This document shows positions 5,769 through 62,599 of a stretch of DNA of 64,000 nt, in pieces. The stretch's first letter is position 1, and each line of letters starts with the position of its first letter. This DNA is from an uncultured Candidatus Saccharibacteria bacterium (GTDB lineage: Bacteria; Patescibacteriota; Minisyncoccia; Phycocordibacterales; UBA9973), in NCBI GenBank assembly GCA_964348725.1, contig CAYGDG010000004.1:2133-66132 (forward strand), in the 5' to 3' direction. The notes beneath the pieces were generated by a model. That model did no database searches. It worked only from the letters and a program-made list of their open reading frames with translations, and was not told the origin of the DNA. Made by a program: the position numbers and the translations under genes.

Positions 5769-5870
5769 GGGCGTATTATACTATGTTTCGCCCGGCGCAC
5801 GAACTCGTAAACAAATTCCGGACGGGAGAACTTTAGAATTTCTTTATCTCTAATGTAGTAAAATCAGCAA

Positions 5871-6251
5871 GTGAAAGATTTTGATAATTGGAATAAATTA
5901 AAAAAAGAGCTCAATGAAAAAGGAAATTTTCCTTACCCTGCACCTCGTGAGATATGGTGGTGTTCTCTTGGACTGAACATTGGAGTAGAAATAGACGGGA
6001 AAAATGAAAATTTTGAAAGACCTGTTTTAGTTCTTCGCGCGTACAATAAAGAAATGCTCAAAGTCGTACCGCTTACCACAAGAGAAAAATCACCGCCTTT
6101 CTATTTTAAAATTCAGAACGAGGCGATTTCTTCTTTTGCCGTTATTTCACAAACGAGAGTAATCAGCTCCCGCCGGATGATACGGAAAATAAGCAAGATT
6201 TCACCAGAGGAATTTCAGCGCCTGAAAGCTGCTATTCAAAAAATCGGCTAG
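5871..6251 (+). CDS. MazF/PemK-family toxin-like protein with N-terminal extension (no adjacent antitoxin seen)
   Basis: REIWWCSLGLNIGVEIDGKNENFERPVLVL aligns with the MazF core GDLIWVDFDPTKGSEQAGHRPAVVLS. LKVVPLTTREKSPPFYF aligns with CLCVPCTTQSKGYPFEV. The C-terminal ISPEEFQRLKAAIQKIG aligns with APEELQLIKAKINVLIG. Confidence 0.6.
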   Translation: MKDFDNWNKLKKELNEKGNFPYPAPREIWWCSLGLNIGVEIDGKNENFERPVLVLRAYNKEMLKVVPLTTREKSPPFYFKIQNEAISSFAVISQTRVISSRRMIRKISKISPEEFQRLKAAIQKIG

Positions 6252-6353
6252 AAACAATCGGAGCCCGCCACTTTCGTGGCGGGCTCCTCGGAGTTCCGCA
6301 AAGGGAACCTAATACTTATATTATAGCAAAGCGCCTTGCTTCAAGTCAACCTC

Positions 6354-6626
6354 CTAATACAAAGTCTTCAACCAAACCCCCACGCCTTTATGCCCCGAGC
6401 AAGTGCCGCGCTTGTGCTGGCTGAAGCTGTATGTGCCGTCCTTGCATTTCGCGCTCGCGCCTTTCGGCGCGACCTTGGCCTTTACCGGAGCGTGCACTTT
6501 CACGCCGCTTGAATTCACATAATAATCGCTCGCCGCTATGGTCGGGACAGGGGAGAACGCCAGGCTGAAAGCCATCGCCAAAAGCAAAATAAAGCCGGGT
6601 ATCAAGTGCCTCTTTTTCGTATTCAT
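6354..6626 (-). CDS. DUF3761-family small secreted protein
   Basis: Signal peptide followed by the hallmark YYVNSSGVKVHAP ... AKCKDGTYSFSQHKRGTCSGHKGVGVWL. Confidence 0.6.
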   Translation of the reverse strand: MNTKKRHLIPGFILLLAMAFSLAFSPVPTIAASDYYVNSSGVKVHAPVKAKVAPKGASAKCKDGTYSFSQHKRGTCSGHKGVGVWLKTLY

Positions 6627-6754
6627 ATGTCCTCACTTTCGCATCTGGGTTCGCCTTTGTCAATATAAAAACTTTATCTTTTCTTTATGTGGGGTGTGTA
6701 TACTGCCGGTGGCGCGAATTGCGCTATTTATTATTTTGCCTAATTACAAGTTAT

Positions 6755-7417
6755 ATGGAAAAAAGTATACACAAAATTACAATCGGTATTCGCTATCGGC
6801 GTTCTTTTAGGATACCTGACATCTCAGGAAAAGTTATAGATTATATCTTGCACGATGATAAATCACCATTTCGTGAAAATTTCTTTCAAGAAGTTGGTGA
6901 AACTTCTGAAAAAGGTAAGATACTTGTAAGTGAAAAGAAAGATTTCTTGTCTATTGATATAGATAGCTTAATTTTAAGTTTAAATACAAATAATTTGGAG
7001 TCAGCCTTAACAAAAATCAAAGACTCATATTTTCCTTATTTTACAGATTCTATCTTTAAAGAATTTGAAATTGAAAATATAAATAGATTAGGTATTATTT
7101 TTGAACACAGGTTAGAAAAACTTGATTCAATAGATAAAATGACTAAAGAGCTTTCCTTAAATGAAATTTCTGCACCTGATAACTTTGAATTAAGATTTTC
7201 AAAAAAATTACCTACAACAGCTGGATTGATTTCAAAAAATATAGTTGACTTTTATAACACCATTTTTACCTATCAGAAGAATTCTAAAGGTATAGATATT
7301 AAGTTAGACTATCAACTATATTTTTCCCCAGAGATTGGTAGTATACAAGATGTTGAATTTAATAAATTTATTGATTCAGCAAAAAGTTATTTATTAGGTA
7401 AATTCTATAAATGGTAA
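6755..7417 (+). CDS. hypothetical cytoplasmic protein, first gene of an AT-rich three-gene operon
   Basis: Internal ATG at 6755 is preferred over the track start at 6689. About 30% GC against about 50% in flanking sequence. No TM segment. No recognizable domain. Confidence 0.45.
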   Translation: MEKSIHKITIGIRYRRSFRIPDISGKVIDYILHDDKSPFRENFFQEVGETSEKGKILVSEKKDFLSIDIDSLILSLNTNNLESALTKIKDSYFPYFTDSIFKEFEIENINRLGIIFEHRLEKLDSIDKMTKELSLNEISAPDNFELRFSKKLPTTAGLISKNIVDFYNTIFTYQKNSKGIDIKLDYQLYFSPEIGSIQDVEFNKFIDSAKSYLLGKFYKW

Positions 7418-7418
7418 A

Positions 7419-7949
7419 ATGGCAAAGAGAAACTACCATCTATCACGATTTCATCATACAGGTAAATCTAAGATAGAGAAAAATGATTATGTTGAATTAA
7501 TTAATGCTCCTCAAGAAAAAATCAATGATACTATTGAAGACAGCAGTGATGTATTTTCAGGCTCAGATATAACCGATTCTGGAAAAGGAACAATCTTAAA
7601 GAGTCGTAAAATTATAAAAGAAGATGTTGTAGAGCAGAGCAAAGCACAAAAATCTAAACCTTATGTATCTTTAGGTACAAAATTAAGTAAAAATATTAGA
7701 AAAATAATCTGGGATGGAATTATTGTTGCGATACTCATCACTGCTGTTGGAGTAGTATGGGGCCAGCAAAAAGATTTAGGGAAGATTTTAGCTAATATTG
7801 ATGCCATAAAAGATGATATTACTAAACTTCAAAATAAATATGACGATAACACAGGGTATATTGATAATGTAAAGATAATTACACAGATACAATCAGATTT
7901 GGCTTTTTTAAAGGAAAGGTTAATCAAAGTAGAGTTAAAAGTAGAATAA
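7419..7949 (+). CDS. hypothetical single-pass membrane protein with C-terminal coiled coil
   Basis: Start lies 1 nt after the upstream stop, so translation is coupled. TM segment IIWDGIIVAILITAVGVVWG. Heptad-like C-terminus. AT-rich. Confidence 0.45.
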   Translation: MAKRNYHLSRFHHTGKSKIEKNDYVELINAPQEKINDTIEDSSDVFSGSDITDSGKGTILKSRKIIKEDVVEQSKAQKSKPYVSLGTKLSKNIRKIIWDGIIVAILITAVGVVWGQQKDLGKILANIDAIKDDITKLQNKYDDNTGYIDNVKIITQIQSDLAFLKERLIKVELKVE

Positions 7950-7986
7950 TATTGTATCAATATATTCAAAATGCTAATATCAATAT

Positions 7987-8658
7987 ATGAGAATTAAAAA
8001 ATTAGTATCAAATATTGTTTTCATTAAAAGACCTGAAACAGAAAATAAATGGTGGCATCGTCTATCCCAGGTACTTGTTTTTGGCTCAGGTATTATTGTA
8101 TTTATAATTTCAATCTTATTTTCCTTAGATTATTTAGGTAATCATAGATATGTTGCTTATCATCCAACAGCATTTAGTCTAGAGCCAAACTATGAACGAG
8201 CCAAGGGAAAAGAATTCCGGTGTGAAGAAACCCTGAATTTTTCAGGGGAAGAGCGTTTCATAATTAAATGTGAAGGCATTGCAATTTCACCCGAAGCTTC
8301 AAAGAGATATCAAATACTCTACAATGTTGCTGATAAAGATTTAGAGAAGCAATTTGGTTTAGATAAATATGATGCTACTCATTGCTCTAATAGTGAAAAA
8401 TTTACAACTGAAGCAATGGATTGTATATGGCAAGCTGTAGAGGATAAGCAGGCAGATGCTGCGTATGATGAATATCTAGAGGCACAAAAAAATATCGCGC
8501 GCATTAAAGTTGTCAAAGATATTCACTATAAATACATACTAAGTGATGTCTGTATGTTTTTATTAGTTCCAATTGTTTCTTTTATTGCTTGGATTTTATT
8601 GTGGAATTCAGTTATTTATAGAGTGATTCTTTATATAATTTACGGAAAGAAAAAATAA
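7987..8658 (+). CDS. hypothetical two-TM membrane protein
   Basis: N-terminal TM (VLVFGSGIIVFIISILFSL) and C-terminal TM (VCMFLLVPIVSFIAWILLW). AT-rich. Followed by a strong terminator. Confidence 0.45.
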   Translation: MRIKKLVSNIVFIKRPETENKWWHRLSQVLVFGSGIIVFIISILFSLDYLGNHRYVAYHPTAFSLEPNYERAKGKEFRCEETLNFSGEERFIIKCEGIAISPEASKRYQILYNVADKDLEKQFGLDKYDATHCSNSEKFTTEAMDCIWQAVEDKQADAAYDEYLEAQKNIARIKVVKDIHYKYILSDVCMFLLVPIVSFIAWILLWNSVIYRVILYIIYGKKK

Positions 8659-8670
8659 TTAATAAAAAAG

Positions 8671-18088: not shown

Positions 18089-18571
18089 ATGAGCATAGTT
18101 AACGAAATTTTGCAGCAGTTAAATAAACAGGCATTTAATTACAAAGGCGCGCGCGTCAGTTTCTTTGGTATTCCAGAATTTAAAAAATATCGCACGGGCT
18201 CAGTCCGGGCGACTTTCTCTCGCTTGCTTGCCGATGGGCTCGTAGAAGATTGCGGTGACTTGCGCATCACAGTGAAAGGAAAAGAATATATAAAAAGAAA
18301 AATTGATTCACTGAAGCAGTTTGATTTCCGATTTGCCAAAGACGCGCCGAAGAATCTGATGGTAATGTTTGATGTGCCTGAGACGAAGAAGGCGGAGAGG
18401 GAATGGCTGCGCTGGCAGCTAAAAAAATTCAGTTACTTGATGATTCAAAAGAGTGTGTGGGTCGGCCCGTCGCCCTTGCCAAAGGAATTTATGGAGTATG
18501 TGGAAGAAATCGGTCTGAAAGACAGCCTAAAGACCTTTAAACTGGCGAAAGGGTATGACTTTAAAAAATAG
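18089..18571 (+). CDS. PaaX-like small transcriptional regulator (N-terminal winged HTH plus Cas2-like ferredoxin-fold domain)
   Basis: The N-terminus GSVRATFSRLLADGLVEDCGDLRITVKGKEYIKRK is wHTH-like. The middle NLMVMFDVPETKKAEREWLRWQLKKFSYLMIQKSVWVGPSP matches the PaaX/Cas2 pattern (PaaX: KWLLLLSEGLDKSTLADVKKQLIWQGFGALAPSLMASPS; Cas2: LVVV...R.RL...L...G..VQ.SV). Confidence 0.4.
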   Translation: MSIVNEILQQLNKQAFNYKGARVSFFGIPEFKKYRTGSVRATFSRLLADGLVEDCGDLRITVKGKEYIKRKIDSLKQFDFRFAKDAPKNLMVMFDVPETKKAEREWLRWQLKKFSYLMIQKSVWVGPSPLPKEFMEYVEEIGLKDSLKTFKLAKGYDFKK

Positions 18572-26715: not shown

Positions 26716-27666
26716 ATGAAAACTTTAGGCTTTCTTTTGCTGATTGTGCTTTGTCTTTTAGCATATTCAGTACTCGCGCAGAATCCAAATCTCGTGCCGA
26801 ATCCGAGTTTTGAATTTTATGATTCGCTTCCAAATGATGATTCTCAAATCGGTCGCGCGACCGGATGGAATGCCTGCTCAAACACCCCTGATTATTTTCA
26901 CGGCGCTTCGCCGAGCGGAAATGTCAGCATCCCGCAAAATTATTTCGGCACCGTGGAGCTTTCAGGGAATGAAGAGGTAGGGTGTGCCGGTTTTTATGCC
27001 AAGCATCCTTCGCATTATTGCGAAGTCGTAGGCAGAAAGCTTGCCAGCCCGCTCATATCAGGTGTGACATACTATGTATCTTTTTATGTGAGCAGGGCGG
27101 AAAAGATATCTAATTGCGGAGTTGATCACATTGGCGTTCTTTTTACCGATTATTTCTTCGGGGATACGGTGCACGGATGTGTTATCGTAGATAATCCGCC
27201 GCAAGTGCAGGATTTTGCCCACGTTTATTCCGAAGAGATAATCATTGATACTTTGGAATGGACGAAGATAAGTGGCTCGTTTACCCCAAGGGAAATATAC
27301 CGATTTATCTATATCGGTAATTTCTTCCATGTCCCAAATATGGAAATTGTTTCGGAGCCGCAGGATACTTGTATTGCATATTATTATCTTGATAATGTAT
27401 GCGTCTCAACTGATCCGGAAGTGTGCGGTGTAGTGGCGAGTGTGCAAAAACGAGAAGCTGCAAAGCATCCGCCGCTCTGGCCGAATCCATTTCAGGACAA
27501 TCTGTATATCCGTGATGCGGGTGTACCGGCGACATTATGTTCCGTTTTAGGGCAAGAACTCCGGCACTGGGAAGTAATTCCTAGTGAAATTGACTTCTCG
27601 GATTTTGAAAGAGGAGTGTATTTCTTGAAAACTGAAAAAGAAGTTTTCAAACTGATCAAACAATAA
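26716..27666 (+). CDS. secreted protein with a T9SS (Por)-type C-terminal sorting-domain-like tail
   Basis: Signal peptide MKTLGFLLLIVLCLLAYSVLAQ. The C-terminus LWPNPFQDNLYIRD ... LCSVLGQELRHWEV ... IDFSDFERGVYFLKTEKEVFKLIKQ matches the Por_Secre_tail pattern (YPNP......I......I.D..G..V......iD.S.L..GVYF.K........KLIK). Confidence 0.55.
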   Translation: MKTLGFLLLIVLCLLAYSVLAQNPNLVPNPSFEFYDSLPNDDSQIGRATGWNACSNTPDYFHGASPSGNVSIPQNYFGTVELSGNEEVGCAGFYAKHPSHYCEVVGRKLASPLISGVTYYVSFYVSRAEKISNCGVDHIGVLFTDYFFGDTVHGCVIVDNPPQVQDFAHVYSEEIIIDTLEWTKISGSFTPREIYRFIYIGNFFHVPNMEIVSEPQDTCIAYYYLDNVCVSTDPEVCGVVASVQKREAAKHPPLWPNPFQDNLYIRDAGVPATLCSVLGQELRHWEVIPSEIDFSDFERGVYFLKTEKEVFKLIKQ

Positions 27667-29833: not shown

Positions 29834-30736
29834 ATGGCAAACAGGCACCTTTCCAGATCCATAGTTCTTCAGACCCTCTTTGAGTGGGATTTCAACGACG
29901 GCAAGGTGGAAATCAAAGACGCATTAAAACGCAACTTGGACGAATTTGCTCCTGGGCTGGAAGACGATGATTTTGTGGCGGCATTGACCGAACAAGTATT
30001 AAAAAAGAGGGAAGTGGTAGATGAAATTATCCAGAAAGCCGCGCCCGAGTGGCCTATCGAAAAGATCTCCGTAGTTGATAGGAATATTTTGCGCATTGGG
30101 CTGTCCGAGCTCCTTTTCGGTGATCGCGCGCAAGTGCCTCCGAAAGTCGCTATCAATGAAGCCATCGAATTGGCAAAAACGTTCGGCGGCGAAAATTCCG
30201 GCAAATTTATCAATGGCGTACTTGGTGCCGTGTACAAAGAAATCGGCGAGCCGGGCAAGGACGAGACTTCTAAAAAGAAAAAGAAAGATGACACGCCGGT
30301 GGACCCGTCAAAATTGCCGGTAGAAAAATTCGGCGGCGCGCTCATCTATTCAAAGAGGGACGGCGAGACACTCTTTGCCCTCGTGCATGACGTATTCGGC
30401 TATTGGACCCTTTCTAAAGGGCATCTTGATCCAGATGATACGGAAGAAGAAGGTACAGTGAAGCGCATCAAAGAAGAATTGGCGCTGGACATCACGATAG
30501 TAGAAAAATTAGGCGACACTGAATATGTGGCCAGCCATCCGGAAAAGGGAAAGCTCCTGAAAAAAGTGTCTTTCTTTTTGGCTGAGAGCAAATACCGCGA
30601 GCTTGTGTTGGAATCATCCGGCGGCCTCGACGGCGCACGCTGGTTCAGACTTTCCGAAATTCCGGAGCTCCGCATTTACAATGACATCATACCGCTCATA
30701 GCCAAAGCAGTGGAGATAATTTCAAAGCAGAAATAA
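29834..30736 (+). CDS. nusB: NusB antitermination factor fused to a C-terminal NUDIX-like hydrolase domain
   Basis: aa 1-140 are NusB ([10 protein letters not shown] ... [15 protein letters not shown] ... [25 protein letters not shown]). A KKKKKDD linker follows. aa ~160-300 have a NUDIX fold ([39 protein letters not shown] ... [12 protein letters not shown]), and the Nudix box is degenerate. Confidence 0.7.
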
Positions 30737-30758: not shown

Positions 30759-31454
30759 ATGATACAGTTTTCCGATTTCGAAAATAAAACAAAAGTAGTA
30801 TTTAAAGATAAAGACCTCTTACGTCAGGCGTTCATTCATCGTTCATATATCAATGAAAATCCGGCGGCTCATCTTTCGCACAACGAGCGCCTGGAATTTT
30901 TGGGTGATGCGGTCCTTGAGCTCGTGGTTACGGATTTCCTCTACAAAAAATATCCGACCTATACCGAAGGGGAACTGACCGCGCTCCGCTCTGCATTAGT
31001 AAATGCCATCATCATCTCCGAAGTCGCTTCCGTTCTCGGGATGAATGAATACTTACTCCTTTCCCGCGGTGAAGCCAAAGACACCGGCAAGGCGCGGCAG
31101 TATATTTTGGCAAATACCTATGAAGCGTACGTGGGTGCGGTATTTTTGGATCAGGGCTACGAAGCGGCGGATACATTTATCACGGAATCATTGTTGCCGC
31201 ACACCGAGGAAATAGTTTCAAAAAAACTCTGGCGCGATGCCAAGAGCCTGGTGCAGGAAAAAGCACAGGAATTCGTCGGCTCTACTCCTTCATACAAGAC
31301 ACTGCACGAATCCGGCCCTGACCATGACAAGCATTTTACTGTCGGTATTTTCTTTGCTGGCGAGCTCGTCGGCGAGGGCAAGGGCAAGAGCAAGCAGGAG
31401 GCCGAACAAAAAGCCGCCGAGGCCGCATTAAAAGCTAAGAACTGGCTGGATTAA
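30759..31454 (+). CDS. rnc: ribonuclease III
   Basis: ERLEFLGDAVLELVVTDFLY signature. C-terminal dsRBD (GPDHDKHFTVGIFFAGELVGEGKGKSKQEAEQKAAEAAL). Confidence 0.9.
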   Translation: MIQFSDFENKTKVVFKDKDLLRQAFIHRSYINENPAAHLSHNERLEFLGDAVLELVVTDFLYKKYPTYTEGELTALRSALVNAIIISEVASVLGMNEYLLLSRGEAKDTGKARQYILANTYEAYVGAVFLDQGYEAADTFITESLLPHTEEIVSKKLWRDAKSLVQEKAQEFVGSTPSYKTLHESGPDHDKHFTVGIFFAGELVGEGKGKSKQEAEQKAAEAALKAKNWLD

Positions 31455-31456
31455 TT

Positions 31457-33595
31457 ATGCGGCTGAAGACTTTAGAACTGAACGGATTCAAATCTTTTGC
31501 CAAAAAAACTTCTTTGGAATTTACGAGCCCGATCACAGCAGTCGTGGGCCCGAACGGCTCCGGTAAATCGAACGTGGTGGAATCCATCCGCTTCGTGCTC
31601 GGTGAACAGTCGATGAAAAGCATGCGCGGCAAGGGCGGCGCGGACCTCATTTTCAAGGGCTCGAAATCCCTTTCTCGCGGCACACGCGCATCCGTCTCCA
31701 TCTTTTTCGATAATAACGACAAAATATTCCGTCTCGAAAATGAAAGCGGCGAGAATATGAATATGAATTACGATACCGTCTCTATCGCGCGCGAAGTATA
31801 TGCGGACGGCCTGAATAAATATTCTTTGAACAATACCGATGTGCGCTTAAAAGACGTGAATGCGCTTCTTGCTTCCGTGAACATCGGCTCCTCCGGCCAC
31901 CACATCATTTCTCAAGGCGAAGCTGACCGGGTGCTGAATGCGCCTTCCCGCGAGCGCCGCGAAATGATCGAAGACGCGCTCGGCCTCAAGATATACCAAT
32001 ATAAAATAAAAGAAGCGGAGCGCAAGCTCGAACGCACCGGCGAGAATATGAAAGAAGTCTCGCTTCTGCGCCGCGAGATAGCGCCGCACCTGAAATTTCT
32101 GCGCGGGCAGGTGGAAAAATTCGCCAAAGCGGAAGAGATGAAGACCGAGCTCCTCGGCCTCTATCGCGACTATTTGAAAAAGGAAAGCGTCTACTTGGAA
32201 AAAGAAGAAACCGCGCTTTCCGGCGAGAAGAAAAGGCTCGAAGCGGAAATTCGCGTCATCTCCGAGCAAGTAGTCGATGAACCAAAAGCGGAAGAGAACA
32301 AAGAAAAGCAGGAAGATCTTCGCGTGGCCGAATTGCGCTCTCTCGAGCAAAAAATATATGCCGTGCGTGCCACAAAGAGCGAGCTCGAACGCAAGCTTGG
32401 CCGCATCGAAGGAATGCTCGAACTCAAAGAAAAGAAAGCTGACCTTTCCGGTAAGTGCCCGCTATGCGGACATATCATCGAACAGAAATCCGCAGAAGCC
32501 ACAGCCGAACATACTGACGACGATTTAGCCGAACTCAAAAATTCGAAAGAAGATATCCTGCGGCAGACCGGTGAAATGGAAAAAGAAATTTCCGTCCTCG
32601 ACGGAGAGATGCGCGCCCTGCGGCAGGCGATAGATTCCGAGCGCGACAGTGAGCGGGAAAAAGAACGAGAGCAGGAACGGGAGAAATATGCCTATAAGAT
32701 GAAGCTCGGCGAGCTTAATTCCGCTCTGAATATAGCGACGGTCAAAGAAGAAAATATCATTCGCGAAGCCGAAGCGTTCGAGAATGAGCTCAAGGAAGGC
32801 GCGGCACTCGTCGGTCCGGATATCCTTTCATATAAGAATGTAGAAATAGAAGGTACACCTGACAGATACCAGCAGGAAGAGGCAAAAAGAAAAATCGAGC
32901 GCTTAAAGATCAAGCTTGAAGATGCTGGTCTTGGCGGCGGGGGAGATATTGCCCGCGAATATGCGGAAGTCTCCGAACGCGACGCATTCCTCGCCAAAGA
33001 AATGGAAGATCTCGGCAAGAGCATCGGTTCATTACAAGCCCTGATGGCCGACCTCAAAGAAAAGATCGACAGCGAATTCAAGGACGGCGTGCGCAAAATA
33101 AATAAAGAATTTTCCGAATACTTTTCATTGATGTTCGGTGGTGGGCATGCATCGCTCGATGTCGTAGCACAGAATAATAATAGGAGAAAAGCCAAGCTTG
33201 ATTCTGCTGAATCAGACGATGACGGGGAGATACCACTCGAGCAGGGAATAGAGATAAATGTATCCTTACCCCACAAGAAAGTAAAAGAGCTGCACGCACT
33301 TTCCGGCGGCGAGCGCTCTCTCACTTCCATCGCCCTTCTTTTTGCTATGTCCCAAGTAAACCCCCCGCCATTCCTCGTGCTGGATGAAACTGACGCTGCG
33401 CTCGATGAAGCGAACAGCCGCAAATACGGTGATATGCTCGAAAAGCTCTCCAAGCATTCCCAGCTCATCGTCGTCACTCACAACCGCGAGACAATGAGCC
33501 GTGCCGGTGCGCTCTATGGCGTGACCGTCGGCGCTGACGGCGCTTCCAAGCTCCTCTCCGTCCGTTTTGACGAAGCGGCCGCTATTGCGAAATAA
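31457..33595 (+). CDS. smc: SMC-like ATPase with a Rad50/SbcC-type CPxCG zinc hook in place of the hinge (712 aa)
   Basis: SMC N-terminal head MRLKTLELNGFKSFAKKTSLEFTSPITAVVGPNGSGKSNVVESIRFVLGEQS. SMC C-terminal head LSGGERSLTSIALLFAM ... FLVLDETDAALDEANSRKYGDMLEKLSKHSQLIVVTHNRETMSRAGALYGVT. Mid-coiled-coil KCPLCGHII. Follows rnc, as smc normally does. Confidence 0.7.
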   Translation: MRLKTLELNGFKSFAKKTSLEFTSPITAVVGPNGSGKSNVVESIRFVLGEQSMKSMRGKGGADLIFKGSKSLSRGTRASVSIFFDNNDKIFRLENESGENMNMNYDTVSIAREVYADGLNKYSLNNTDVRLKDVNALLASVNIGSSGHHIISQGEADRVLNAPSRERREMIEDALGLKIYQYKIKEAERKLERTGENMKEVSLLRREIAPHLKFLRGQVEKFAKAEEMKTELLGLYRDYLKKESVYLEKEETALSGEKKRLEAEIRVISEQVVDEPKAEENKEKQEDLRVAELRSLEQKIYAVRATKSELERKLGRIEGMLELKEKKADLSGKCPLCGHIIEQKSAEATAEHTDDDLAELKNSKEDILRQTGEMEKEISVLDGEMRALRQAIDSERDSEREKEREQEREKYAYKMKLGELNSALNIATVKEENIIREAEAFENELKEGAALVGPDILSYKNVEIEGTPDRYQQEEAKRKIERLKIKLEDAGLGGGGDIAREYAEVSERDAFLAKEMEDLGKSIGSLQALMADLKEKIDSEFKDGVRKINKEFSEYFSLMFGGGHASLDVVAQNNNRRKAKLDSAESDDDGEIPLEQGIEINVSLPHKKVKELHALSGGERSLTSIALLFAMSQVNPPPFLVLDETDAALDEANSRKYGDMLEKLSKHSQLIVVTHNRETMSRAGALYGVTVGADGASKLLSVRFDEAAAIAK

Positions 33596-34116: not shown

Positions 34117-35994
34117 TTATTCCGTTTTTACTTCCTCAAACTTCACTTTCTCCTCCTTTCCCTTGATGACTTTCTCCGGCTGGAAGGCGCGGGAGAGAGG
34201 GACGGTATGCATGGCGGCTGTCATGGAGCCGTCTTTTTTTATTTTTATTTCCAGGAGCGCGCCGCGCATGGTATTTACGGAAAAGTATTGATCAAAGATA
34301 AAATTACCGAGGCTGTATGCGATGTAGCCATTTTTATATATTTCCGTATCCTGCACCACGTGCGGATGCGCGCCGATGACGAGCTTGGCGCCCGCATCTA
34401 CTGCGCGGTGGGCGAGCGTTTCTTGCCGTTCATTGTGTTTCGTCTGATATTCATCGCCGAAGTGAAATGATACGACGAGGTGATCTACTTCCGCGGCGGC
34501 ATTTTTTATTATTTCATCAAAATTCGGATCGCTGGCGAGGAGGAGCCCGGCTTCAGTTTCTGTCGCTTTCATCCAGTCGGGACCCACATCAGAGAAAGCG
34601 ATATAGCCTATCTTGATACCATACTTTTCTATGATTGCCGGCTTTTTCGCTTCTTCGTAATTCATGCCGCCGCCGGCTGTGAGTATTTCATTTTCTTTCA
34701 GGCGAGCGAGGGTATCGGTGAAGGCATTTCTACCCCAGTCGCCGACATGATTATTTGCAAGCGACAGTACGGAAAAGCCCGCGCCTTTGAGAGCGGGAGG
34801 CACGGTAGGGTCCATACGGAAAGAATACAAGTTACGTTTGTCAGCGCCTTGATCCGATGCGGGACCTTCCAGATTCGCAAATGCGATGTCCGCTTTTTGC
34901 AATATCCCCAGATTTTCAAAAAGAGCGGTATAATCACCGCCAAAATTTTTCATGACAGAATTTTTGACACCCCGATCCAGCATGATGTCGCCGCCGAAGA
35001 CGAGCGTGAGGAAGTCCGGATCTTTTATTTCCGGCACGCCTTCTTTTTCTTTCACCCAGGCAGTGTCCGCGTCCGCTTCGCCGCCGTAGTATACATTTTT
35101 TTTCAGATATTTCACGAGGCTCATGACGTCCGCATATCTATCAGGGCTCCGCAGGAGGGCGATGGCGACAGTGCGGTTGCCCGTTTCGGAAAGCGGTAGT
35201 ATAAAGACGGATAGTACGGTTTGACGCGCAGGATCAGTGTAGCCGCTCTTGCCGCCCTGATATCCTTCTTCACGCAGGAATTGATTGTTTGATGACCAGA
35301 TATGGCGGTCGGTCTTATATGTTCGTTTAGAACTTATGGAAAAGAGCTCAGGTTTTTTTGTACTAATGAAACCGGCAAGGCGAAAGAGGTCAAGCGCACT
35401 GCCTTGATTCCCGGCGGAAAGCCCGCTCGGATCGGCAAATGATGCTGACAATGCGAGGCGCTCGGATTCCTGGTTCATTTTTGCGATAAAATTTTCACGT
35501 CCGAAATGTTCGGCAAGTATTTCCGCGGCATCGTTTGATGATTCCAGAAGCAGGGGATACAAGAGGTCGCCAGTCTGTATTTTTTCACCTTTCCGAAAGC
35601 CGCCGTTTTCGCCGTATGTGGCGAGCGCGCGAGGGGATACTATCGCCGTGTCATGTTCGCGCGGTAGCTCCGTAGATACGAGGGCAGTCATGAGCTTGGA
35701 CACGGACGCGAGCGGCATCACTTCTTTTTCATTCTTTTTTAAAATTATTTCTCCGGTATCCAAGTCGCCCACGATGTATGCTTCTGCGGCTACTTTTGGT
35801 TTGGCGCTGCCATCTTTGAGGAAATAAAAGAATTCCGGCTCTTGTGGTACAGGGGTCACGGTGACGGGCGCCGGCTCACCTGTTTTTATTTTCTGATAAT
35901 TCGCACTCGTAATAAAAAAGACGAGCGATACGCCTACACCGATGGAAAAAATGGTCCAGAAAAATGCCTTGATTTTTCCTGTGTGCGTCATCAT
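34117..35994 (-). CDS. fusion protein: N-terminal serine-type D-Ala-D-Ala carboxypeptidase (PBP5/DacA-like) domain plus C-terminal CapA/PgsA-type metallophosphatase domain
   Basis: N-terminal TM segment. SxxK LASVSKLMTALV. SxN SSNDAA. KTG-like KSGYT. The C-terminal half has VFGGDIMLDRGV ... FANLEGP ... LANNHVGDWG ... VVSFHFGDEY ... GAHPHVVQ ... YSLGNFIFDQ (CapA/YwtB-like). Confidence 0.65.
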   Translation of the reverse strand: MMTHTGKIKAFFWTIFSIGVGVSLVFFITSANYQKIKTGEPAPVTVTPVPQEPEFFYFLKDGSAKPKVAAEAYIVGDLDTGEIILKKNEKEVMPLASVSKLMTALVSTELPREHDTAIVSPRALATYGENGGFRKGEKIQTGDLLYPLLLESSNDAAEILAEHFGRENFIAKMNQESERLALSASFADPSGLSAGNQGSALDLFRLAGFISTKKPELFSISSKRTYKTDRHIWSSNNQFLREEGYQGGKSGYTDPARQTVLSVFILPLSETGNRTVAIALLRSPDRYADVMSLVKYLKKNVYYGGEADADTAWVKEKEGVPEIKDPDFLTLVFGGDIMLDRGVKNSVMKNFGGDYTALFENLGILQKADIAFANLEGPASDQGADKRNLYSFRMDPTVPPALKGAGFSVLSLANNHVGDWGRNAFTDTLARLKENEILTAGGGMNYEEAKKPAIIEKYGIKIGYIAFSDVGPDWMKATETEAGLLLASDPNFDEIIKNAAAEVDHLVVSFHFGDEYQTKHNERQETLAHRAVDAGAKLVIGAHPHVVQDTEIYKNGYIAYSLGNFIFDQYFSVNTMRGALLEIKIKKDGSMTAAMHTVPLSRAFQPEKVIKGKEEKVKFEEVKTE

Positions 35995-61276: not shown

Positions 61277-61298
61277 TAAGGAGAGGGCAGGGTGAGGT
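61264..61298 (+). repeat. palindromic element copy B (CACCCTCTCCTTAATAAGGAGAGGGCAGGGTGAGGT), between mreC and tgt
   Basis: Identical over about 35 nt to copy A. It supplies the mreC stop codon and a GGTGAGGT motif 5 nt upstream of the tgt ATG. Confidence 0.8.
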
Positions 61299-61302
61299 TC
61301 TT

Positions 61303-62568
61303 ATGAAATTTGAAATTATAAAAAAACTAAATAATTTGCTCGGTCGCGCGGGAATTTTAGAAACTCCGCACGGGGTTATCCGCACGCCGGCATTCGTGGC
61401 CGTCGGTACGAAAGCGACGGTGAAATCCCTCACGCCCGAGCACGTCAAAAGCGCCGGCTGCCAAGTGGTGCTCGGCAATACCTATCATTTATATTTACAG
61501 CCCGGCGATGAGATAGTGCGCAAAGCCGGCGGCATCGGGAAATTTATGAATTGGCAAGGACCGACGATGACGGATTCCGGCGGCTTCCAGGTATTTTCGC
61601 TGGGCGCGGCATACGGCAAAGATATTTCTAAAGTAATAAAAATCACCGACCCGTCGCTCCTAATACCAGAGCGTTTTGATGACAGCGATGCTCCGCGCCT
61701 CGCGAAGATCGGCGCAGACGGCGTGTCCTTCAAATCGCACTTGGACGGAAGCATTCACTACATCACGCCGGAAAAATCCATCCAGATCCAGCACAATCTC
61801 GGCGCGGATATTATTTTCGCTTTTGACGAATGCACTTCGCCGGCGGAAGATGTGCGCTATCAGGAAGAAGCATTGGAACGCACGCACCGCTGGGCGGAGC
61901 GATGTTTACGGGAGCACATCAAACTTAATACCACCCCCTTACCCCCTCCTAATTTAGGAGGGGGAAGCTCCGACCTAGGTCGGAGCGGGGGAGGTATCGC
62001 ATTGTTTGGAATTGTGCAAGGCGGCAGGGAAGAAAATTTACGCAAAAAATCCGCCAAGATAATTTCGGAGATGCAAGTGGATGGAAAAGGATTTGATGGC
62101 TTCGGCATCGGCGGCTCTTTCGCGAAGGAAGATATGAGTACTGCCGTAAAATGGGTGAATGAAATTTTGCCGGAAGAAAAGCCGCGGCACTTGCTCGGCA
62201 TCGGCGAGCCGGAAGATTTTTTTATGGGCATAGAAAACGGCGTGGATCTTTTTGACTGCGTCATCCCGACGCGCCTCGGCCGAAACGGCACGATATATAC
62301 GAAAAGAGGGAAGATAGTGATCACGAATGCGCAGTACAGAGAAGATTTTACGCCGATAGAGGATGACTGCCCGTGCACGACCTGCCAAGGCTACACCAAA
62401 GCCTACATCGCGCACCTTTTCCGCGGCAAAGAAATGCTCGCCGGCACGCTCGCCTCCACGCATAATATGTATTTCATCGTCTCCCTCGTAGACAAAATCC
62501 GGCAATCTATTTTGGATGGAAATTTTTATGAATTTAAGGAAAGCTTTATGAGGGAATATATAAAATAA
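61303..62568 (+). CDS. tgt: queuine tRNA-ribosyltransferase carrying an in-frame palindromic insertion
   Basis: TPAFVAVGTKA, QGPTMTDSGGFQVFSLG, LGIGEPED ... DLFDCVIPTR, and the zinc site CPCTTCQGYTKAYIAHL. Confidence 0.9.
   Translation: MKFEIIKKLNNLLGRAGILETPHGVIRTPAFVAVGTKATVKSLTPEHVKSAGCQVVLGNTYHLYLQPGDEIVRKAGGIGKFMNWQGPTMTDSGGFQVFSLGAAYGKDISKVIKITDPSLLIPERFDDSDAPRLAKIGADGVSFKSHLDGSIHYITPEKSIQIQHNLGADIIFAFDECTSPAEDVRYQEEALERTHRWAERCLREHIKLNTTPLPPPNLGGGSSDLGRSGGGIALFGIVQGGREENLRKKSAKIISEMQVDGKGFDGFGIGGSFAKEDMSTAVKWVNEILPEEKPRHLLGIGEPEDFFMGIENGVDLFDCVIPTRLGRNGTIYTKRGKIVITNAQYREDFTPIEDDCPCTTCQGYTKAYIAHLFRGKEMLAGTLASTHNMYFIVSLVDKIRQSILDGNFYEFKESFMREYIK
61931..61993 (+). repeat. composite palindromic element inserted in-frame in tgt (encodes TTPLPPPNLGGGSSDLGRSGGGI)
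   Basis: CCCCCTCCTaatttAGGAGGGGG followed by CTCCGACCTAGGTCGGAG. About 20 extra residues relative to the canonical Tgt loop between RWA..R and ALFGI(I/V)QGG. Confidence 0.65.
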
Positions 62569-62599
62569 AAAGTGAAGAAATTATTCTTCACTTTTTTTA
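62569..62599. terminator. bidirectional intrinsic terminator (tgt / 62614..62913)
   Basis: AGTGAAGAAattaTTCTTCACT followed by TTTTTTT. Confidence 0.55.

Follow-up and report, generated by a model that had tools for sequence, protein, structure and literature searches.

The gene analyzed here lies near the middle of a 64,000-nucleotide stretch of contig CAYGDG010000004.1 (assembly GCA_964348725.1; the whole stretch is referred to below as the window), which comes from an uncultured bacterium of the class Minisyncoccia. The open reading frame (ORF; 31457..33595, forward strand) starts with ATG and encodes a product of 712 amino acids (aa). An initial annotation, made from the DNA sequence alone, had described it as an SMC-like protein with a Rad50/SbcC-type zinc hook instead of a hinge; the ORF and all of the peptides quoted there are present. 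Smc is the ATPase core of prokaryotic condensin. We consider it highly probable that the gene is the Paceibacteria (Patescibacteria/candidate phyla radiation, CPR) ortholog of bacterial Smc, in a strongly reduced, hinge-less form (mini-Smc) that would act as a zinc-hook homodimer and chromosome organizer. The features of the gene and its immediate surroundings are collected in Table 1.

Table 1. Coordinates of smc, its parts, and the adjoining features in the window (AF2, AlphaFold2 monomer model)
Feature	Coordinates	Strand	Basis or location
rnc (RNase III), directly upstream of smc	30759..31454	+	Pfam Ribonucleas_3_3 (5e-36) and dsrm
smc, hinge-less mini-Smc with zinc-hook apex	31457..33595	+	ORF, SMC_N, TIGR02168, B. 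subtilis Smc head match
ATPase head, N-terminal half, aa 1-177	31457..31987	+	B. subtilis Smc head alignment, AF2 secondary structure
Walker A GPNGSGKS, aa 31-38	31547-31570	+	Read in sequence, head alignment
SMRG with R57	31619-31630	+	N-terminal head half
Q-loop SQGEAD, aa 152-157	31910-31927	+	N-terminal head half
Outgoing coiled-coil strand, aa 178-325, briefly interrupted at aa 274-282	31988..32431	+	AF2
Apex loop with zinc-hook motif, aa 326-349	32432..32503	+	AF2, conservation, Pfu Rad50 hook matches
KCPLCGHII, aa 333-341	32453-32479	+	Read in sequence
CPLCG hook motif, aa 334-338	32456-32470	+	Read in sequence
Returning coiled-coil strand, aa 350-560	32504..33136	+	AF2, B. subtilis joint/neck alignment
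Smc "joint" discontinuity, aa 462-494	32840-32938	+	AF2, joint/neck alignment, 5xei
ATPase head, C-terminal half, aa 561-712	33137..33592	+	B. subtilis Smc head alignment
Signature LSGGE, aa 615-619	33299-33313	+	C-terminal head half
Walker B/D-loop FLVLDETDAALD, aa 639-650	33371-33406	+	C-terminal head half
H-loop THN, aa 674-676	33476-33484	+	C-terminal head half
Hairpin CCTTAT-TTT-ATAAGG followed by a T-run, directly after the smc stop codon	33596..33625	+	Read in sequence

The head domains were assigned from hidden Markov model (HMM) scores, the ranking of PDB sequence matches, and Foldseek. The split ABC-type head is complete, with Walker A, Q-loop, signature, Walker B, D-loop, and H-loop all present, and its catalytic motifs are invariant across the family in a 112-sequence alignment. 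A single Pfam SMC_N match bridges residues 3 to 697 of the protein (2.7e-65), and no Pfam match to SMC_hinge (PF06470) was obtained at E ≤ 1. TIGR02168 (SMC_prok_B), the NCBIfam equivalog model of bacterial Smc, matched in two separate stretches that leave out the middle of the model, for a score of 511.5 bits; the archaeal-type Smc model TIGR02169 scored 276 bits. The top PDB matches were the Smc heads of Bacillus subtilis and other bacteria (9.5e-79), with eukaryotic SMC2/3 next, and the best Foldseek match of the AF2 model in the PDB was 5xei, which comprises the Smc head, coiled coil, and joint. By sequence score and predicted fold, the heads and the head-proximal arm are thus those of a bacterial Smc and not of Rad50/SbcC, RecN, or a defense ATPase, in agreement with the SMC-type heads of the initial annotation.

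We deem it extremely unlikely that the protein is instead a double-strand-break repair ATPase of the Rad50/SbcC family. Such a protein would explain the CPxCG hook at mid-length, the size (like that of short bacterial SbcC or phage gp46-type proteins), and a weak Pfam match to SbcC_Walker_B (E = 0.019). However, Rad50 NCBIfam models reached 37 to 64 bits against cut-offs of 700 to 1,087, compared to 511 bits for Smc, and Rad50 heads appeared in the PDB search at about e-11 or weaker, compared to e-79 for Smc heads. An Smc-type joint is also present, the gene occupies a conserved position next to rnc, and the window holds no SbcD/Mre11 nuclease gene. By HMM score, the heads therefore do not side with SbcC, the outcome against which the initial annotation had cautioned. 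Only slightly less remote, and still very unlikely, is an SMC-like defense or accessory component (Lamassu LmuB, MADS mad3-like, or Wadjet JetC) or a RecN-like repair protein. Short arms and zinc hooks do occur in some of these families, and the PADLOC models mad3 and LmuB scored 200 and 105 bits, respectively; these scores are far below that of Smc and appear to reflect generic SMC-head similarity. The RecN model reached 43 bits against a cut-off of 408. Moreover, the neighbors are housekeeping genes (rpmF, nusB, rnc, thrS, gyrB, and rpoBC), syntenic across the class, with no effector or partner genes among them.

The position of the gene agrees with the assignment of its heads. As the initial annotation had noted, smc lies directly after rnc, whose stop codon is 2 nucleotides before the smc ATG; the local order is rpmF, nusB-Nudix, rnc, smc. 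This gene order is repeated around a 64%-identical relative (L001), and rnc was directly upstream in 64 of 81 related loci, which are mostly from species-representative genomes. In none of the 81 loci was a second smc-like ORF found within 10 kb on either side. The rnc-smc arrangement is known from Bacillus. Given this synteny, the gene is therefore the resident smc at its ancestral locus rather than an accessory paralog. The hairpin and T-run that follow the smc stop codon are, as read from the sequence, probably the intrinsic terminator of the rnc-smc unit.

Being about 470 residues shorter than canonical Smc and derived from a metagenome assembly, the gene might be taken for an artifact of assembly or deletion or for a decaying pseudogene of a full-length smc. 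We assign this a virtually negligible probability, because three contigs encode exactly this 712-aa product (a 94-kb ENA contig and two of 5 to 10 kb, one of them from a Logan assembly of run ERR3094292 and bordered by the same genes) and because the protein is conserved across relatives. The frame is unbroken, no catalytic residue varies across the family, and strand lengths hold to within 3 to 4 aa. Hence a collapsed assembly, a concern of the initial annotation, does not account for the architecture. A search for relatives over 5.8 billion proteins returned at least 120 full-length proteins (61 to 68% identity; 698 to 770 aa), all bacterial and named Nomurabacteria, Paceibacterota, Minisyncoccia, Parcubacteria, or Patescibacteria. 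Exactly one central CPxCG was found in 112 of the 120 closest relatives, at 0.46 to 0.48 of the protein length (CPLC in 69, CPTC in 30, CPMC in 10, and CPVC in 3), and the hook cysteines are usually the sole cysteines of these 112 proteins. More than 100 full-length relatives with the motif span 698 to 724 aa. None of the 120 closest relatives has SMC_hinge in its precomputed Pfam list. Relatives occur in 587 instances in species-representative genomes, and the architecture is kept in hundreds of independent metagenome-assembled genomes (MAGs). Judged by this conservation, the hook motif is evidently no chance occurrence.

An AF2 monomer model was built on 112 homologs (mean predicted local distance difference test [pLDDT] score, 73.8). 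The outgoing strand is modeled as helices 178-273 and 283-325 (pLDDT mostly 75 to 90), and the returning strand as helices 350-452, 454-461, 470-490, and 495-560. The joint is present: residues 481 to 560 align to the B. subtilis joint/neck, and the model is interrupted at residues 462-469 and 491-494. Each arm strand has roughly 150 to 220 residues (∼22 to 25 nm), about half the canonical length; the canonical arm (∼340 residues per strand, ∼47 nm) is not reached by the 712-aa protein. Within the crown group to which the protein belongs, strand lengths are tightly held (Q-loop to first hook cysteine, median 179, standard deviation [sd] 3.2; second hook cysteine to LSGGE, median 280, sd 4.0). 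With head boundaries taken from the B. subtilis alignment and not from the published pipeline, we arrive at an approximate estimate of ∼165 and ∼180 residues for the two strands (mean, ∼170). For comparison, the B. subtilis Smc arm has 344 aa per strand (∼47 nm), functional arm lengths follow a periodicity of 91 aa, and natural Smc arms fall into major modes of 238, 341, and 515 aa, with 163 and 423 aa as minor ones (Burmann et al. 2017, Mol Cell; PMC5344682). Our estimate of ∼170 is close to the minor mode of 163 aa and to 344 minus 2 × 91, or 162. Since a hinge alignment was required in that natural survey, hinge-less proteins were excluded from it by construction (PMC5344682).

At the tip of the arms, AF2 sets the hook motif in the loop that joins the outgoing and returning helices. 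The sole cysteines of the protein, C334 and C337, both lie inside GKCPLCG, and C334, P335, C337, and G338 do not vary anywhere in the 112-sequence alignment, while the coiled coil around them varies. When the 110-aa apex alone was compared to all PDB sequences, the Pyrococcus furiosus (Pfu) Rad50 hooks 1L8D (3.7e-5) and 6ZFF (2.3e-4) ranked as the top two matches, with GKCPLCG opposite GKCPVCG. A 32-sequence apex profile again placed 1L8D (1.6e-5) and 6ZFF (2e-4) first, and profile-sequence comparison of the apex to the Pfu Rad50 hook with hhalign gave a probability of 94.6%. The family consensus G[KR]CPxCGxE[IL] parallels Pfu GKCPVCGREL. What the present protein shares with the Rad50/SbcC hook is thus the GKCP[VL]CG core, the xE[IL] that follows it, and a place at the tip of an antiparallel coiled coil; what separates the two are the heads, which are not of the Rad50 type, the lack of an Mre11/SbcD gene nearby, and a weak Pfam hook match. 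The CPxCG motif in the middle of the coiled coil and its likeness to Rad50/SbcC, as first annotated, are borne out by these results. Because each chain has only two cysteines, a four-cysteine (Cys4) zinc site would be possible only between two chains. In the Rad50 hook, the zinc site is reportedly shared between two chains (Hopfner 2002, as cited in PMC5344682).

Hinge loss extends well beyond the closest relatives. When 1.84 billion cluster representatives were searched exhaustively with HMMER, 30,071 matched, and the best 150 (42 to 67% identity) were examined. All 150 are short: nearly all have 693 to 782 aa, and three have 524 to 663 aa (P0154, P0145, and P0198), of which P0154 and P0145 look truncated. 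No canonical Smc (∼1,180 aa) was found among these best 150. All 62 sampled representatives match SMC_N, and SMC_hinge is not among the matched families. A central CxxC occurs in only 6 of the best 150, in differing contexts (P0143, P0152, P0163, P0177, P0197, and P0198; ICIYCAQ, SCPVCGQ, RCRTCKQ, SCRYCGQ, ICAACGQ, and VCGYCGQ), and genome loci contributed two further instances, namely, KCRYCGQ from a Vogelbacteria MAG as well as NCPYCGQ (loci L057, 10001-12118, and L079, 2657-4786). In total, CxxC hooks are carried by the clade of the present protein and at least five other lineages. Since the independent apexes carry the signature C-x-x-C-[GKA]-Q, in which the proline of G[KR]CPxCG is mostly absent (it is kept in P0152 and L079), their sequences suggest hooks of separate origin. 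Strand lengths of these lineages resemble those of the crown group.

The remaining relatives, including 8 of the 120 closest, have a cysteine-free, sequence-variable apex insert of ∼50 to 60 residues. Such a hairpin apex was found in 59 of 81 loci (L008 and L013 among them) and in P0057, P0062, P0068, P0077, P0079, P0092, P0097, P0120, and most of P0121 to P0270. For P0062, AF2 predicts with modest confidence that the insert folds into two short helices (338-356 and 361-379) flanked by loops; no Pfam family matches the module. Proteins of this kind from other Paceibacteria (e.g., P0062 and P0121) are hinge-less, sit at the same locus, and have heads and arms up to 67% identical to those of the present protein, from which they differ in being ∼40 to 55 residues longer and in having the cysteine-free two-helix hairpin in place of CPxCG.

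The history of the apex was examined in a neighbor-joining (distance) tree of 624 head and arm columns, with the apex excluded, the B. subtilis head as root, and 100 bootstraps. The crown group of the present protein, hook and hairpin forms together, was monophyletic in 100 of 100 replicates; all hook-bearing proteins together were monophyletic in 0 of 100. The root state was helical in 96 of 100, and every replicate called for at least 6 changes of apex state (median, 8). On these sequence comparisons, the likeliest course is that the ancestor of the class lost the hinge and half of each arm, leaving a small helical hairpin as the tip, and that paired-cysteine hooks then arose or were exchanged several times, including in the lineage studied here. 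Because the protein is nested in a clade that is already hinge-less and in which the hairpin apex is commoner, the hook most likely replaced a helical hairpin and not a 150-aa hinge. The proposal of the initial annotation that a hook stands where canonical Smc has its ∼150-aa hinge thus holds as to the missing hinge but probably not as to what the hook displaced. Its further suggestion, an architecture intermediate between SMC and Rad50, gives way to a different one: as judged from the tree, the zinc-hook Smc is a derived state within a clade of hinge-less, half-length Smc proteins. We rate at even odds the broader proposition that Paceibacteria/Minisyncoccia have a hinge-less, half-length Smc as their only condensin ATPase, with an exchangeable arm-tip module in which hairpin and hook were swapped at least 6 times.

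Several observations weigh against the zinc-hook Smc proposed here. The TIGR02168 score of 511.5 bits is below the curated whole-protein cut-off of 567.35. The apex of the AF2 monomer is of low confidence (pLDDT < 50 at residues 327 to 352), and the Pfam Rad50_zn_hook model matches it weakly (E = 0.58). Most relatives lack any apex cysteine, so an Smc of this kind can do without a zinc hook. Searches of all ORFs of the window and of 85 loci (1.49 Mb, smc neighborhoods only) with phmmer and a scan for [FYW]xGP[LIVMF][DE] turned up neither ScpA nor ScpB. The apex observations would also suit a different role for the CxxC, as a tight-turn or capping motif or as a redox or other metal site, with dimerization, if any, through arms, heads, or kleisin; the helical hairpin found at this place in most relatives makes the apex cysteines dispensable. 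We nevertheless consider that role unlikely. Both cysteines, the proline, and the glycine are invariant in 112 sequences amid a variable coiled coil, their context agrees with that of the Pfu Rad50 hook, the PDB search ranks hook structures first, and two cysteines per chain suit an interchain Cys4 site. In addition, central CxxC apexes arose repeatedly in the clade, which points to selection on a specific function of the paired cysteines. Taken together, these data favor zinc binding and dimerization through the hook, which we infer from sequence.

With ScpA and ScpB not found near smc, the canonical ring-closing partner is a presumed one. The ScpA probe was a B. subtilis sequence that was validated against the PDB. 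Among the ∼55 ORFs of the window, Pfam searches found no ScpA, ScpB, SbcD/Mre11, or second SMC-family gene, so that the initial statement that neither sbcD nor scpAB is adjacent stands; the L001 neighborhood likewise has no metallophosphatase nuclease (Mre11/SbcD). An ORF pair with scpA-scpB-like sizes (242 and 176 aa; 6689-7949) was rejected, as it has no Pfam match and no ScpA motif. In a published Paceibacteria-class genome, PMX_810_sub (PMC10936435, supplement file 4), the annotation table lists no KEGG ortholog (KO) for scpA, scpB, or smc, and neither SbcCD nor a chromosomal-type ParB. This means that the system was lost in that lineage or that there, as elsewhere, the mini-Smc escapes standard annotation. 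The table of the cultured Minisyncoccus genome (PMC10936435, supplement) has no KO for scpA or scpB and no PF02616, but it has none for smc either; as that genome also belongs to an order other than that of the bacterium studied here, it gives no guide to the partner. That these genomes also do without ScpAB, with mini-Smc working without a canonical kleisin, is a conjecture we hold to be improbable.

The window as a whole is core housekeeping DNA, and one end of its contig lies only ∼3 kb beyond it. It carries genes for an addA-like helicase-nuclease, pheS, pheT, gyrB, thrS, rpmF, a nusB-Nudix fusion, rnc, smc, a fusion of S11 peptidase and CapA, rnr, trmD, rpoB, rpoC, dnaG, rpoD, tsf, rpsB, mreB, mreC, and tgt. 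Two of the neighbors of smc are fusions. In the first (300 aa; 29834-30736), a NusB domain is joined to a C-terminal NUDIX hydrolase, and the same fusion is in the same position in L001 and L086. The second (625 aa; 34117-35994, reverse strand) joins Peptidase_S11 (D-Ala-D-Ala carboxypeptidase) to CapA/PGA_cap and lies beside smc in L001 and L086 as well. The Logan assemblies ERR3094292 and ERR3094302 (L084 and L085) both stop right after mreC (window ∼61290-62570), and the exact product of the tgt ORF that follows mreC in the window (61303-62568) is without a record; the mreC-tgt junction may be a strain-variable junction or an assembly join.

Elsewhere in the window, a low-GC stretch at ∼5870-8660 (GC content of 0.345 at 6001-8000 compared to 0.45 to 0.55 in the rest of the window) contains a PemK-family toxin gene (∼5871-6251, identified from L082) and three ORFs that match no family (6689-7417, 7419-7949, and 7987-8658), and it may be an inserted island. 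A 160-aa protein with a PaaX_M/Cas2-like domain is encoded at 18089-18571 (3.6e-14; CRISPR_Cas2, 2e-4); no CRISPR array or other cas genes were noticed near it. A secreted-looking protein of 316 aa (26716-27666) has a weak, subthreshold match to Por_Secre_tail (E = 8.5e-5; 23 bits, with the cut-off at 27), a type IX secretion C-terminal sorting domain that is unexpected for a CPR bacterium.

Among known systems, the closest in descent is B. subtilis Smc of Smc-ScpAB (TIGR02168; 5xg3 and 3zgx), with which the present protein has in common orthologous head motifs, the proximal coiled coil, the joint, and a gene adjacent to rnc. It differs in lacking the hinge, in arms of about half the length, in a score below the equivalog cut-off, in the CPxCG hook at its apex, and in the absence of ScpAB from the window and the related neighborhoods searched. 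The closest in design is a laboratory construct, B. subtilis Smc(Zh), in which the hinge was replaced by the Pfu Rad50 hook and which supported normal growth (Burmann et al. 2017, Mol Cell; PMC5344682). Because cells with that chimera grow normally, a natural zinc-hook Smc is functionally plausible. The same study reported that Smc with shortened arms functions in discrete, periodic length windows and concluded that it is irrelevant which fold the dimerization domain has (PMC5344682). The engineered Smc(Zh) and Mini-Smc share with the present protein a design of Smc heads and short arms joined by a Rad50-type hook, but Smc(Zh) is an artificial protein with a P. furiosus hook, whereas the gene studied here is natural and conserved, and its arms are shorter than the 253- to 267-aa window of the shortest functional hinge constructs (PMC5344682). 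The reverse swap, a yeast Rad50 carrying the MukB hinge, is functional as well, and reviews mention only these engineered swaps. Archaeal ClsN/coalescin and other ASRPs are chromosome organizers of the SMC superfamily that, like the present protein, have a zinc hook where SMC has its hinge (PMC9389158); in contrast to the bacterial Smc ortholog described here, they form an archaea-specific family with other heads (NF045487, 71.9 bits against a cut-off of 300).

In the mechanism that we propose, the zinc-hook apex would take over the job of the hinge. One Zn2+ bound by four cysteines, two per chain, would clamp two apexes together and yield a constitutive homodimer. At the opposite end, the two heads would engage and disengage, driven by ATP, and so power the DNA transaction; the heads would presumably be bridged by a kleisin. 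Chromosomal DNA would thereby be entrapped or loop extruded for chromosome organization and segregation.

We found no description of a bacterial Smc that naturally has a zinc hook, nor of a hinge-less Smc in CPR, in the searchable full-text literature, outside which most subscription journals lie. The natural zinc-hook Smc and its mini-Smc clade therefore appear to be new, although an existing description is possible; the Smc(Zh) chimera and ClsN/ASRP were already known. In standard annotation, mini-Smc proteins are labeled "AAA family ATPase" or "hypothetical protein." Because they are mislabeled in this way and fall below the cut-off of the Smc model, surveys could wrongly score CPR genomes as lacking Smc.

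The finding should interest SMC specialists. A compact homodimeric Smc of ∼80 kDa would be useful for structural and single-molecule work, and with mini-Smc the periodic arm-length rule can be tested directly. The hinge counts as a hallmark of true SMC proteins. Proposals have cast it as a site of DNA binding and as an entry gate, and several loop-extrusion models include it. Until now, its replaceability had been shown solely by engineered chimeras, of which the zinc-hook Smc looks like a natural version. If this reading is true, the same swap took place repeatedly in evolution, and if it is true for the class, the SMC hinge fold would be dispensable, with only arm geometry and a dimerizing tip mattering.

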